Origin: Escherichia coli
GTDB lineage: Bacteria; Pseudomonadota; Gammaproteobacteria; Enterobacterales; Enterobacteriaceae
Length of the DNA stretch: 64,000 nt
Strand: one strand, 5' to 3'
NCBI RefSeq assembly: GCF_045037415.1
Contig: NZ_CP173438.1
How positions within the stretch are numbered: position 1 is the first letter of the stretch; every line of letters begins with the position of its first letter. Made by a program: the position numbers. Of the stretch, positions 24,001 to 30,000 are shown one piece after another.

Positions 24001-27000
24001 ATCCCATAGTTCTCAGCATTGGCTATAAAAGATATATAGTTATACTCTAACTCTTTAAGTAGCTTAATAAACTCCTGAAATGGGCCTTCTTTTTCTTCAT
24101 CAATTTTTTGCATTCCAGGAACATTTTCAAGCATAATATATTCAGGAAGAAGTTCTCTAATAAAACGATGAGTTTCATTTAGTAGATTTCTCCTTGAGTC
24201 GTCACTAGTTTTATTTTTATTCTGTTGCGAAAATGGTTGACATGGTGCACATGCACTCAGTAACAAAGGCCGTTTAGCTTTAATATCAATGATGTCGGAG
24301 ATATCTTGAGGTTCGATTTTCCTAATATCATCTTGGATGAATTTTGCATCAGGGAAATTAGCTTTAAATGTTTCTGATGCTTGTTGGTCAATATCTAATC
24401 CAAGCTCGATATCAAAGCCAGCCTGACGTAGCCCTTCACTGGCTCCACCACAGCCACAAAAAAAATCTATAACTATCAATTTGATACCTTCTTTGAACTA
24501 AATAAAACAACTCGAATAAGTTGATATTTTAAATAAAAATAATTGGTATGGATATGAACTTTGGTCACGCTACCGCCCTGAGGTCATGGCCATCCCCAGA
24601 CCTTTTAAAGGGATTATGAACAACACCCAGCCGACGTTCAACGGTGTTACCCATACATATCACAAAGTTAGTTAATTGGTTGGTCGTAAATTGACCTAAA
24701 ATGATTGAGGGCAATGCAAAAATCATTGGGAAATCAGGCGACACAGATGTTCGGAAGAGACTGAATGTTAAAAATATAGAATGTATATTCTCAAAAAAGA
24801 GATATTTCATTACATTTTATATGTGTATAGGAAAGTGAGATTGGCGAATCACCTCCCAATCATCCCGCCAGCGCTCCATTCAGCGCCACGCCAACCCTCA
24901 CTCCAGCCCACGTCATCGCCCCCAGCCAGAATGTCGGCAACACCAGAAACATCAACCTCATCACCAGATTGATAATCACGTCATCCTGCGTATTCTGGAT
25001 CCCGGCTAAATTCCTGCTACTGTGGGTATCGCTGTTGTAGAGCACATCCAGCAGCCAGCTATCAAGCCACCGTGCCAGTTCCCACCAAAAGGTGAGGAAA
25101 AATAGTGCAAACTGCACAAACGTCAGCGTCATCACTACTTTCACATCCCACGCCGAACAGAGCGTTATCAGCGGAATACAGATCACCAGCGCTATTTGCA
25201 GCTGCGCCTGTACCATCGGTAGTGCCTAACGCACGCTGTCGAATGCCGTACATGCCGCTATGCTGCCGAGGATATTTCTAGCGCCGGATGCCAACCGGGT
25301 GGCGGCATTGGCGACGGTGCCATCAACGTTACCGCCATAGCTTGGATAAACGCGCCCATTCTGCGATACCTGCATATTTCGTTCACTGACCCGCGAGCGC
25401 AGCACGGCCTCTTCATACACTACCTGCGACTGGTCGATTTTTTTAAACGCCGTCCAGATATCTAGGGCAGGAAGTTGCAGTAGACGGGCTTTCAGCCCAA
25501 CGGTGTCGTCGGCCCACCGCTGTTTACAAGTGGGATAGCCGCCCGCGCCCGTATCGGCCAGCCCGGCATCGCGCGATGCACTGTACGGCCAAGCACTGTG
25601 TGGTGAAAGCGCATGGTCGGAAAAGGCCTGTTCAGCTAACCAAGCACATCCCACCATCACAAGAATCGCCAGAAAACCAAACTCAGTCAGAATAACTCTT
25701 CCTGATTCAGGCTTTGCTCCTGCATTATGGCTACCACTATTGTTTGCCTGCACGTATCATCTGATAACGGTTAATTAACTGATTTAGCGCCATTTCAGCC
25801 TGTTTTTGCTGCTGTTCACTGCCATTCTGGTTACGGACTTCACCGTAGCGACGTAACTGCTCTTCCGCCGGGATATGCCGGTTAAAAGCCTGCATGATGC
25901 CAAACACCTCCGTTTTCAGTTCACTGACCGTCATGTATTTTCCCCGCTGTTCATCCTGACGGTTCAGGCGCTCAGCCAACTGCTGTAAGCGGATCATGCC
26001 TTCGTTCCAGCCCGTCATCGCCTCTTCCGGGAGCGCACGACTCCTTACACTCTTCTGCCAGTTATCCACCATTTCCTGAACACGGGGATTGCCGGGGACA
26101 AGAACCCTCAGTTGCTGCAGCAGCTGCGCACTGCACCGCAGGTTGTATGCTGGAGGTAATTCTGCCAGTCGCGTTATCTGCTGACCGGAAAGGGTTATCC
26201 AGTGCACTCAGGGCAGATACCGGATTCAGGTTAATTTTTTCAAACAGGGAAGCATATACGCTGTCGCCGGTATGCGTTTCAGATACCACACTCTCTGCGA
26301 CGTTCTTTTCTTTCTGTACAGACATCAGCATTTTCTGTAAGCGTACAGCGAGGGCCGTATTGACGGGGATGTGTTATTCAGCTGGCAGTGCTATGCGCCA
26401 CGGAAGCAGTTCGCTGACCCGGTTGACCGGCCAGTCTGCTATGACGGCAAGCACATGGCGAAGGTAGCTTTCTGGATCCACGTCATTCAGTTTGCACGTC
26501 CCGATCAGGCTGTACAGTAGCGCTCCCCGCTCACCACCATGGTCAGAGCCGAAGAACAGGAAGTTTTTACGACCCAGACTGACCGCCCGCAGGGCATTTT
26601 CAGCGATGTTGTTGTCGATTTCCACCCAGCCATCGTTCGCATAGTACGTCAGTGCCGGCCACTGGTTAAGTGCGTACGCGAACGCCTTCGCCACCATCAG
26701 GCTGGACAGGGGACTTTCACCCCCAAGCTGCTGAACATGCCCGGCACACAAAGAAGATCTCGGCTCAGTGGCCGGGATTAGTTATACAATTATCTGATTG
26801 ATTTTTAATATATCTTTTCTTAAATCATCGTTAATATCTGACGGTTCTAGCTGGTTTATAAGTTGCCTTATTTGGGTAAAGGTACTTTTCTGATCTTTTA
26901 GATCTTCTCCTTTTATCGTTGATAAAGCTGCAATTAGTTCACCATCGTAATATTCACCCGCTAACGGCTCTTTAGTTAGAACTTCCAACACTCTTGGCAT

Positions 27001-30000
27001 CAACTGATCAATACATAAATTTTGTCGGATAGCGCGGCAAAGATCTTCCACTGTTAACTTTTCAAGAGGCACATCTATGATACGTTCGAACCAGAGTTCA
27101 AGCGGTGATTGTTGCTCAGGCTCTTTTGTCATATTGATGTTTCCAATCAATTTACGTAAGGTAATCATATTCCATATCCTTTCAAGGCTGATTCTATTTT
27201 ATTAATAGCATCTGTTGCTCTGCCATACGCAGCCTGAGCTTCAGGATTGTTGACGTTTTTCAACGTATCCGCATGATTTCTTAATCCTCTGAGCGTATTT
27301 TGCATTTCCTGCATATGATCCCAATATCCTCCATTCTCTTTAGGAACTGGCTTACCATCCATATCCTTGAGAGTTCCAATAATATCATGATCTTTCAGAG
27401 CATTTTTTATAGTGTTATCGATCTTCTTAATCGCACTTTCTTGCTTCTGATTAAGCTTATCTACAGTTTTTTCATTTTGCTGCTTAGGATCATTTTCCGA
27501 TGGTGGTGGTGTACCGGTTCCTGAGCCGGAACCGCCCAGTTCTACTTTTTCCGCATCGGTCAGATCTTTACCGATATTCGGATTCGAGGCAGCCCCGGAA
27601 CCGTACTTATCATGCAACGAACTGAGATACTTAGTAGTGATCTCATCATTACCCATCATTTGCAGGGTAATCAGATGCTCCAGTTCATCGGAGGTCATCC
27701 TGTCGGCCATATCCTTGACTGCCGCCCCGGCAAGCCCGGCCATGCCCGCTTTCGCCCCGATTTCTAGCAACTGCTCTGCAACTTTAGTCCTGCAAGGTGC
27801 TGCGACCGCACAGCCTCTGGCAACCAGACTCAGCGCATTATTCTCAACAACGTTCTTCCCGGCACCAGCTCCAGCAGCCGCGCCAGCCACATCGCCACTG
27901 GCAATGCCGCCGGCCATACCCGCTGACAGCGTTGCCAGCGTGCTTACAGTTTGCTTCTGATCTTCTGTCAGTTTCGACGGATCTACGCCCGGGTAGAGGC
28001 TTTTCGCAATGGCTGACGCGATCACTTCACCAGTACCCGCACCAATTGCGCCTGCTGCCGCACTGTTGCCCTGAAGGGCTGCTGTCACACCACCGAGAAT
28101 GGCATGGGCAATGGCTTTTGCCGCTGTATTGTCATCAATACCCGCGTGATGACCGATGATGTTCGCCAGCTCCGGCGCTGAAGCACCTGCCAGCGCGCCT
28201 GCCATATTGCCGCCCACCAGGCCCTGAAGTGCAGCCGTTGCAGCCTGGATACCGCGCTGCATATCGCTGCCGGTATCACCGGTGATAAGCCCGCTGTTGC
28301 GGATGTCCGGTATATCCAGCGTCAGGTCTGCAGCACTGTACAGCGTGCCGTTCTGCTGATTATCAAGCCTCTGTGTGTTAACGGTGAGTGAGGCCTCCCC
28401 CTGCAACAGACCGCTGTTGGTCAGGGTCTGTGACTGTGTATTCAGGGCGGAAGCAACAAGTACGCCGCTGCTGGTCAGTTCCGGCGCACTGAGGCTGAGC
28501 GACGGGGCACTGCTTTTCCCGCTGTGGGTGAGCTTTTCACTGGCGTTCAGGGTAAGGATGTCTCTGGCAGCCTGTGTTCCGTCAAGCTGTGCGTTCTGCA
28601 CATCCACGCTGACACTGTTGCCTTGCGTCTGCGCAGTGGTCGTGGTCTTCAGACTGTTGCCTTTTACAGACACCGTGCCACCCGCACTGGTTTCACCCGC
28701 CAGTGTGGAAGACGCGCTGTTCAGCATGAGGTTACCGTCACTGTTTGTGACCGATTTTTCTGTGGTGGTCAGTGTGTCTGCAGAAACCACAAGTTCCTTT
28801 GCCCCGGAGAGGGTACCGCTGTTGTTTATCTGCGTGGCACTGAGCGTCAGCACGTCATCGCTGACGAGTCTGCCGCGGTTTTCGAGTGTACCGCTGACGG
28901 TAACGCGGGCACTGTCTTTTGCACCGGCATCACCGGACAGTGTGGCATTGCGGACGCTGATATCGAGTGTGCTGCCACTTTTAATACTGCCGGTGCTGGT
29001 CAGGTCAGTGGCGGTGACTTTCAGGCCGTTCCCCTGGACGGCACCGGTATTACTGAATGTCCCGGTTTTCACCGTGGCATCGCGCCCGGCAACCAGTGTC
29101 CCGCCGTTGTTCAGGCTGCCGGAACTGACGGTGAGTGTTTTCCCGGCAACGCTGCGGCCTTTCAGTGTGGTATCATCGGTGGTGGTCAAGGTGACATTTT
29201 CAGCTGCATTCACGGTCCCGGAAGTCTGGTTCAGGTGCTGTGCACTGAGCATGGCGTTCTGCCCGGCAGTCAGTTCACCACCGTTCTGTACAATCTGCCC
29301 GGATGAAGACAGCACCAGATTTTTATCCGTCACCAGACGGGACTGATTCAGTGTCAGTCCCGTTGTCCCGGTAACGCTGAGATTTCCTCCGGCTTTGTTA
29401 TCCCCTGAAAGTGAAACATTCGTTCCGGTTACGGTGGTATTGCCGCCGGCAAGGCTGTTCTTCAGGACCAGTTTCCCGGCACTGTTCAGTATGATATCGC
29501 CCTCGCGGGCATAAAGGTTACCAAGATTAACCCCGACACCACTTTCAGTGGAGGTCAGATGAATACGCCTGGCGTACATTCCACCGAGAGCGCCGGTATC
29601 AACGGCAACTTTCGGCACATCACCTTCGCCCTTCAGGGCACTGACGCGACCATCTGCAGTTATCCGGTTAGCGCCTGCAGTGACAGTTAAATCCTTCGCA
29701 TGAAGCGCGGCATTCACTTCCGTTGCACGGGCAATAATGGATACGGCATCGCTCCGGGTGCCGTCCAGGCCCGCGCCATTGATGGTGATACTGCCTTCAG
29801 TCACCTCCAGCGCCTGCAGGCTGCCGTCGGCATTCATCACAGGTTTGCCTGTGGTGAGCGTCGCGTGCGGCGTGTTGATAAAACCACAGCCGTCACAGGT
29901 GATACCATACGGGTTGGCAACCATCACATTCGCCGCTTTGCCGGCCACTTCCGTATAGCCCTGCAACAGTGAACGGTTACCGCCGGTCACTTCGTTGATG

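Follow-up and report, generated by a model that had tools for sequence, protein, structure and literature searches.

A CysK-activated tRNA nuclease and its immunity protein, identical to those of Escherichia coli 536, at the end of a cdiA with a large internal in-frame deletion

Introduction

Which toxin is encoded at the end of a short cdiA gene in Escherichia coli, and can the protein that carries this toxin still deliver it to another cell? The gene lies in a stretch of 64,000 nucleotides of contig NZ_CP173438.1 (assembly GCF_045037415.1), referred to here as the window. A first-pass annotation had placed a CdiA-CT/CdiI toxin-immunity pair at 26782-27900 and had left the toxin without a family or a defined activity; it made no mention of an internal deletion in cdiA. 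We find that the toxin, its activator and its antidote are already known, being the CysK-activated, tRNA-cutting CdiA-CT and the CdiI of uropathogenic E. coli 536, and that two thirds of the length of the carrier (delivery) protein is gone.

Results

The locus and its surroundings

All of the genes considered here, namely cdiB, cdiA, cdiI, an IS66 remnant and the VasL and TraG pseudogenes, lie on the minus strand. Directly upstream of cdiA, cdiB (30342..32108) is an intact ORF whose translation is a 588-aa TpsB-type outer-membrane transporter, entered in RefSeq as the ShlB/FhaC/HecB family protein WP_001534797.1; NCBIfam also returns weak BamA-like matches to CdiB. The cdiA ORF (27165..30329) encodes 1,054 aa and is an internally deleted, in-frame allele, and cdiI (26782..27168) encodes 128 aa. 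The cdiI ATG and the cdiA TGA overlap in the string ATGA, with a Shine-Dalgarno sequence (AAGGA) 8 nt upstream. GC content is 57.6% in cdiA upstream of VENN, 37.3% in the toxin domain and 35.4% in cdiI, in keeping with the initial description of the 128-aa ORF as AT-rich. Since cdiI occupies 26782-27168 and the VENN motif (aa 828-831 of the translation) occupies 27837-27848, the interval 26782-27900 correctly brackets cdiI together with the CT-coding end of cdiA. The toxin had been said to span roughly 240 aa after VENN, which is slightly high, the count being 223 aa after VENN and 227 aa from its V; the C-terminal end quoted at that time agrees with the translation, which finishes ...KGYGI and then a stop.

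An IS66 remnant and a decayed gene do follow the pair. The ORF at 26374..26751 is the 3' remnant of an IS66-family transposase, because only the last part of the Pfam DDE_Tnp_IS66 model is matched (positions 226-283 of 284, together with IS66_C); RefSeq has a pseudogene at 26374-26694 and describes the transposase as incomplete, with its N-terminus missing, and the remnant is also found in strains 536 and UTI89. The decayed gene is a VasL-domain fragment (25737..26207; Pfam VasL, E 5.6e-37), in RefSeq a pseudogene without its N-terminus, and next to it is a TraG N-terminal-domain pseudogene (24860..25621; internal stop and incomplete in RefSeq), which was positioned by mapping RefSeq locus 7861-8622 onto the window after a check of collinearity. 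Further decay around the locus takes the form of IS3 and IS66 fragments. No attachment site for an island turned up when the window was scanned for tRNA genes.

The toxin and immunity protein are those of E. coli 536

Read from the V of VENN, the CT is identical at 227 of 227 positions to PDB 5J5V_B, 'tRNA nuclease CdiA' (E 5.5e-149), and to the 3' end of cdiA in the strain 536 genome; with respect to PDB 5J43 and 8ZYC, the sole difference is the H178A substitution engineered in those structures. CdiI is identical to PDB 5J5V_C over all 128 residues (E 1.2e-79) and matches Pfam CdiI_3 (PF18616, E 3.1e-28); its exact sequence carries the name CDII_ECOL5 in UniRef, and its RefSeq product, WP_000631802.1, is common to strains 536 and UTI89. 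The proposed toxin-immunity pairing is thereby borne out, and the ATGA overlap, the CdiI_3 match and the identity to 5J5V_C all agree with the overlapping ORF being the immunity gene. The DNA of the module is 100% identical to that of 536 and UTI89, and a search of 5,426 complete E. coli genomes found the module at ≥99% in 209, these two strains included; at the DNA level, cdiI is at least 99.6% identical in each of the 209. Full-length versions are named 'contact-dependent inhibition effector tRNA nuclease' in RefSeq, and an orphan copy (H70) 'polymorphic toxin type 28 domain-containing protein'. Judged by sequence identity, window 26782-27848 encodes the CdiA-CT(EC536) toxin and CdiI(EC536), the model contact-dependent growth inhibition (CDI) module of uropathogenic E. 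coli 536, and no result of the analysis speaks against this identity.

The assignment bears directly on the idea that the CT belongs to an unassigned family and that its activity is not deducible. Inspection by eye shows no classical nuclease motif, the match of CdiA to Pfam Ntox28 (PF15605) is weak and sub-threshold (E 0.023, 15.3 bits, aa 950-1025), and the NCBIfam search returned generic TPS and FHA-repeat matches and no specific model for either CT or CdiI. Nevertheless, the CT is 100% identical to a tRNase described both structurally and biochemically (5J5V, 5J43, 8ZYC/8ZYD). A search match to a known toxin family was the very outcome that the first-pass annotation had named as counting against it, and we regard the idea as refuted. 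Because the Ntox28 match is sub-threshold, it is the identity to the solved protein on which family membership rests.

Domains and expected mechanism

CdiA-CT(EC536) is designated Ntox28 (PMC9086364) and is a CysK-dependent tRNA anticodon-loop endonuclease that is active only when bound to CysK (PMC11724271); its complexes with CysK, CdiI and tRNA have been solved by crystallography and cryo-EM (PMC11724271, PMC9086364, PMC7690452). The steps given below come from the literature on these identical proteins and are carried over to the window by identity. By the 100% match to 5J5V_B, the cytoplasm-entry domain at the N-terminus (CT ~1-125) lies at 27474..27848 and the tRNase (Ntox28) domain (CT ~126-227) at 27168..27473. 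Toxin that reached the target periplasm would rely on the entry domain for FtsH-dependent import across the inner membrane, FtsH being reportedly needed by both CdiA(EC536) and CdiA(ECL) (PMC7690452). The C-terminal domain would be a latent nuclease, stabilised in a CysK:toxin complex in which the catalytic pocket D155/W176/H178/E181 would form, and this complex would then cut tRNA anticodon loops; CdiI would neutralise the toxin by covering H178/E181. All four residues of the published active site (PMC9086364) are at the expected positions (D155, 27384-27386; W176, 27321-27323; H178, 27315-27317; E181, 27306-27308), and the C-terminal GYGI tail, a motif whose role is described in PMC7690452, is encoded at 27168-27179.

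Comparison with other toxins places the module more precisely. CT residues 2-125 are homologous to the entry domain of CdiA-CT(ECL) from Enterobacter cloacae ATCC 13047 (PDB 4NTQ_A, E 3.5e-42), and for both CdiA-CT(ECL) and CdiA-CT(EC536) a requirement for FtsH and OmpC/OmpF has been reported, whereas CdiA-CT(ECL)'s C-terminal toxin domain is unrelated and has been described as a 16S rRNase (PMC7690452). Tox28(Rlac) of Ruminococcus lactaris has the same Ntox28 designation and tRNase function but is thermostable and works without CysK (PMC9086364), unlike the CysK-dependent type found in the window. Colicins E5 and D, comparators in PMC11724271, are likewise interbacterial anticodon-loop nucleases blocked by a cognate immunity protein; no sequence relationship to them was detected, and they are delivered by other machinery and do not depend on CysK.

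An internal deletion in cdiA

In strain 536 the same CT is carried by a full-length CdiA of 3,242 aa, with the same IS66, VasL and TraG remnants downstream and only 5 mismatches over window 24000-27848; the residues missing from the carrier in the window correspond to aa ~686-2873 of the 536 protein. Relative to the 3,262-aa CdiA of UTI89 (WP_000554170.1), the gene consists of an exact 2,056-nt prefix joined to an exact 1,111-nt suffix, with no other difference, and cdiI and the flanks are identical as well. The 6,624 nt (2,208 codons) that UTI89 retains between these parts are missing cleanly and in frame, nt 2056 of cdiA being joined to its last 1,111 nt at a 2-bp 'TA' microhomology (28274..28275). 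The UTI89-type cdiA is the apparent parent allele by this comparison. An origin from the 536 allele was rejected, the 5' part being 98.8% identical to 536 as against 100% to UTI89.

With this segment go most of FHA-1, the region that binds the OmpC/OmpF receptor, the covarying/YP region, FHA-2 and a portion of the pre-toxin region. In CdiA(EC536) the receptor-binding region is Ala1345-Trp1668 and the covarying region Pro1669-Gly2310 (PMC5371414), both of which fall inside the deleted interval; FHA-2, which is needed for translocation into the target (PMC9086364), gave no Pfam match (PF13332) in the 1,054-aa CdiA. Pfam finds only the TPS and PT-VENN domains and the weak Ntox28 match in this protein. 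The parts of a class II E. coli CDI system that are kept are the intact CdiB, the TPS secretion domain (aa 36-288, 29466..30224; PF05860, E 5.4e-50; TIGR01901, E 2e-17) and the pre-toxin PT-VENN domain (aa 784-834, 27828..27980; PF04829, E 1.9e-16), along with ~400 aa of FHA-1.

Spread of the short allele

The junction is contiguous in exactly 53 of the 5,426 complete genomes, whether queried with 100 or 200 nt spanning it, and several of these 53 are labelled O25b:H4-ST131. Repeat-rich genes such as cdiA invite the concern that FHA repeats were collapsed in assembly; the identical junction in 53 independently assembled complete genomes, and breakpoints that are non-repetitive, non-homologous and share only 2 bp, led us to reject an assembly artefact, which we consider next to impossible. 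All 53 copies are identical, so they carry no selection signal in either direction. The exact 1,054-aa protein is present on at least 1000 contigs. In related genomes, CT and cdiI have been wholly lost through a different truncation. We found no description of this deletion allele in the literature on ST131 with cdiA, and no expression or competition data for the 1,054-aa allele.

Discussion

From the regions that are missing, the 1,054-aa CdiA would be without target-cell recognition or toxin translocation, and the locus would therefore no longer be a weapon. We infer that it is probably unable to deliver its toxin and persists chiefly as an immunity gene, with cdiI going on guarding the strain against 536/UTI89-type neighbours. 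Taken jointly, the 536 module, the in-frame-deleted cdiA and a loss of delivery with immunity retained make up an explanation that we hold with high confidence.

Some room for residual function is left: the short cdiA ORF is open and in frame with its signal/TPS domain intact, cdiB is intact, PGAP does not label the short cdiA a pseudogene, and the protein is common. CdiB could in principle export the short CdiA without secretion arrest, leaving it to work as a toxin, either released or at the surface, by a route that needs no receptor, or else as an adhesin. The reading frame is kept exactly across the deletion, the TPS domain, the remaining FHA-1, PT-VENN, CT, cdiB and cdiI are all intact, and the abundance of the allele in complete genomes and contigs alike points the same way. 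Purified CdiA-CT(536) is also said, in work by Beck et al. in 2014 (Mol Microbiol), to get into F+ cells via the F pilus, which would favour such a route. However, the protein has lost the receptor-binding, covarying/YP and FHA-2 regions, on which adhesion and outer-membrane translocation depend, one third of deletions are in frame by chance, and the identity of all copies is consistent with one hitch-hiking event within a clonal lineage. Shorter truncations of CdiA(EC93) are, moreover, reported to be poorly exported and rapidly degraded (PMC5371414). On balance we consider a working short CdiA improbable, and we give slightly less credence still to its being a naturally minimised effector, that is, a CysK-dependent tRNase, soluble or loosely attached, with receptor-independent uptake (for example through a pilus), retained in a successful hly/cnf1-positive ST131 sublineage.

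The whole of cdiBAI, cdiI included, might instead be an inert remnant riding with the hly/cnf1 pathogenicity island. Decay on all sides, with the IS66 remnant, the VasL and TraG pseudogenes and the IS3 and IS66 fragments, is what such a remnant would be expected to sit among, and the loss of CT and cdiI by another truncation in related genomes is compatible with it. Yet cdiI is an intact ORF with its Shine-Dalgarno sequence still in place, and it is conserved in every genome with the module, and cdiB is intact too; in addition, co-occurring ExPEC such as UTI89 and 536 commonly have a full-length CdiA of the 536 type, so that immunity is plausibly beneficial. We therefore see an inert locus as unlikely, though a reading that deserves some weight, and prefer loss of delivery with immunity retained.

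The discovery value of the locus is small, in that the toxin, its CysK activator, the immunity protein, the entry route and the receptor are among the best documented in the CDI field. What modest value remains lies in epidemiology: on a common ST131-associated pathogenicity island sits a cdiA allele that keeps the toxin and immunity parts and has shed those for receptor binding and translocation, and the short allele is a convenient clonal marker because 53 complete genomes share a single exact junction. If the preferred reading is right, these strains would have given up the weapon and would stay immune to competitors of the 536/UTI89 type.

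Identity of the toxin and its immunity protein

The cdi locus comprises cdiB (30342-32108 (-), 588 aa), directly upstream of cdiA (27165-30329 (-), 1,054 aa), and cdiI (26782-27168 (-), 128 aa). CdiA carries a TPS secretion domain (aa 36-288), a PT-VENN pre-toxin domain (aa 784-834) and the VENN motif (aa 828-831, window 27848-27837 (-)), and the C-terminal toxin region (CT) extends for 227 aa from the V of VENN to a KGYGI end; the first-pass annotation was right to place a CT here and quoted a protein string that is present in it, but the roughly 240 aa that it gave after VENN should read 223-227 aa. 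The cdiI ATG overlaps the cdiA stop codon as ATGA and is preceded by an AAGGA ribosome-binding site. GC content is 35.4% in the cdiI ORF and 37.3% in the last 100 cdiA codons, as against 57.6% in cdiA upstream of VENN; such a compositional break is usual for a swapped CT/immunity module.

In a search of solved structures, the 227-aa CT matches PDB 5J5V chain B ('tRNA nuclease CdiA', E 5.5e-149) at all 227 positions and differs from 5J43 and 8ZYC/8ZYD solely at their engineered H178A. The overlapping AT-rich 128-aa ORF, presumed from the outset to encode the immunity protein, likewise agrees with 5J5V chain C ('Immunity protein CdiI') without a single substitution; it matches Pfam CdiI_3 and equals the UniRef entry CDII_ECOL5. 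The DNA of the CT/cdiI module shows 100% identity to that of strains 536, UTI89 and NU14, and 209 of 5,426 complete E. coli genomes carry the module at >=99% identity; in module-carrying genomes the full-length gene bears the RefSeq name 'contact-dependent inhibition effector tRNA nuclease'. From the identity with the 5J5V chains and the 536 module DNA we assign the pair to CdiA-CT(EC536)/CdiI(EC536), of uropathogenic E. coli strain 536, and not to an unassigned family of undefined activity, as had been proposed: through 5J5V the CT matches a characterised toxin, and its residue-for-residue identity to chain B excludes a novel toxin family.

Full molecular detail is already on record for the toxin/immunity module; the mechanism has been established in the literature for the identical protein, and what the window supplies is the sequence identity. 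CdiA-CT(EC536) is an endonuclease that cuts tRNA in the anticodon loop and is active solely in complex with CysK, a cysteine-biosynthesis enzyme, and it is the toxin alone that contacts tRNA, its helices clamping the D and anticodon stems (PMC11724271, PMC7690452). When bound to CysK, the toxin gains thermostability and its catalytic pocket is able to form. The catalytic residues are D155, W176, H178 and E181, of which H178 and E181 are contacted directly by CdiI, and the toxin domain is designated Ntox28 (PMC9086364). The window CT has all four catalytic residues, and the GYGI tail as well; the Pfam Ntox28 HMM matches the window CdiA weakly (E 0.023). The cytoplasm-entry domain is formed by the first ~125 residues of the CT, which share homology with the N-terminal part of the E. 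cloacae CdiA-CT (4NTQ, E 3.5e-42). The EC536 and E. cloacae systems are alike in that both reportedly need FtsH in the target inner membrane (PMC7690452) and use OmpC/OmpF heterotrimers as the outer-membrane receptor (PMC7690452, PMC5056734).

An internal in-frame deletion in cdiA

The CdiA of the window, at 1,054 aa, is far shorter than that of 536 (3,242 aa) or UTI89 (3,262 aa), a truncation that is absent from the first-pass annotation. The gene consists of an exact 2,056-nt prefix and an exact 1,111-nt suffix of UTI89 cdiA, which share 2 bp, 'TA', at the join (window 28274-28275 (-)), and otherwise there is no difference; relative to UTI89 it has thus undergone a single, clean, in-frame deletion of 6,624 nt, or 2,208 codons. 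With 536 as the reference, the deletion spans aa ~686-2873 and the 5' part shows 98.8% identity, and the exact match to UTI89 therefore indicates a UTI89-type allele as the parent. The sequences around the two breakpoints share no homology, which makes illegitimate recombination a more probable origin of the deletion than repeat collapse.

An unbroken match across the exact junction occurs in 53 of 5,426 complete genomes, several of them labelled O25b:H4-ST131, with 100% identity across the junction queries in all; these 53 independent complete assemblies and the non-repetitive junction exclude an assembly artefact. The exact 1,054-aa protein is found on at least 1000 contigs. A literature search on ST131 with cdiA found no paper describing this in-frame cdiA deletion allele, and the internal deletion is apparently a minor, undescribed allele. 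Strains 5-1 and Esc22 have the same cdiB allele as the window; their cdiA breaks off after 4,386 nt (6670-11055 in both L006, the locus of 5-1, and L007, that of Esc22), and they lack cdiI, the CT and the part of the island on the hly/cnf1 side. Their truncated cdiA borders directly on a fragment of an alpha-hydroxy-acid oxidase gene, a DoxX gene and fimbrial genes. This decay is a second event, independent of the deletion in the window.

The surrounding island

The window holds cnf1 (166-3210 (-)) and hlyCABD (4156-11403 (-)), both placed by way of a 100%-identical stretch that RefSeq annotates, followed by a methyltransferase cassette, cdiBAI, the dsdCXA D-serine utilisation cluster (37294-41139), which adjoins the island, and the cutC/cutD choline-TMA-lyase microcompartment cluster (about 42500-52000). 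With cnf1 and hlyCABD present, gene content marks the window as part of a virulence island resembling PAI-II(536), in a genome of ST131 type. It is collinear with ST131 strain 4433 except for one ISEc23 copy in the latter, and the rest is 99.96-100% identical over ~61.5 kb aligned (window 1-61452). This IS66-family element of ~2.5 kb, absent from the window, lies in strain 4433 at the position of window about 41850-41857. The molybdopterin-dependent oxidoreductase and cytochrome b genes at 12883-14224 (-) are annotated as pseudogenes in the identical ST131 record, through an internal stop and a frameshift; in strain 536 the annotation gives the cytochrome b gene as intact.

The three genes of the methyltransferase cassette (18787-24479 (-)) may form a restriction-modification or defence module of an atypical kind. 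One (23433-24479 (-)) codes for a C5 DNA cytosine methyltransferase. The product of the second (20468-23428 (-)) is a 986-aa 'ATP-binding protein', and a PADLOC model for a type II restriction enzyme matches its N-terminus weakly (E 5e-11). The third (18787-20454 (-)) codes for a 555-aa 'response regulator receiver domain' protein, which has no PADLOC match. The cassette is conserved in 536, and its methyltransferase gene occurs also in UTI89.

Downstream of cdiI lie an IS66 transposase remnant (26374-26751 (-)), whose match covers just the far C-terminal end of the transposase (Pfam IS66_C, and DDE_Tnp_IS66 from position 226 to 283 of 284), a VasL-domain fragment (25737-26207 (-)) and an annotated TraG-N pseudogene (24860-25621 (-)). 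All three are also found in 536 and UTI89; they are old island features, unconnected with the cdiA deletion. The ORF, domain, GC and remnant evidence therefore confirms the initial observation of a CDI toxin/immunity pair followed by an IS66 remnant and a decayed gene, the length of the CT being its sole correction.

Consequences of the deletion

The deleted interval takes in the OmpC/OmpF receptor-binding region (536 residues Ala1345-Trp1668), the covarying region (Pro1669-Gly2310), and the YP and FHA-2 regions; no Pfam FHA-2 match is left in the 1,054-aa CdiA. The covarying region, whose boundaries are defined in CdiA(EC536), is needed for delivery via the OmpC/OmpF receptor (PMC5371414), FHA-2 is associated with translocation into the target, and the YP region with adhesion and the arrest of secretion (PMC9086364). 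Judged by the regions lost, the shortened CdiA can probably neither bind targets nor deliver toxin. It is most improbable that it still functions: it has an open ORF with an intact cdiB beside it, and the allele is common, but the parts for adhesion and translocation are gone, shorter truncations of CdiA(EC93) have been reported to be poorly exported and degraded (PMC5371414), and the copies are identical and so give no sign of selection.

The interest of the deletion allele, which we take to be defective in delivery, is epidemiological and not mechanistic. The cdiI gene is intact and keeps its translational coupling to cdiA, and it is unlikely that the whole cdi locus is inert, with cdiI irrelevant too; rather, cdiI would go on neutralising 536/UTI89-type toxin arriving from neighbours.
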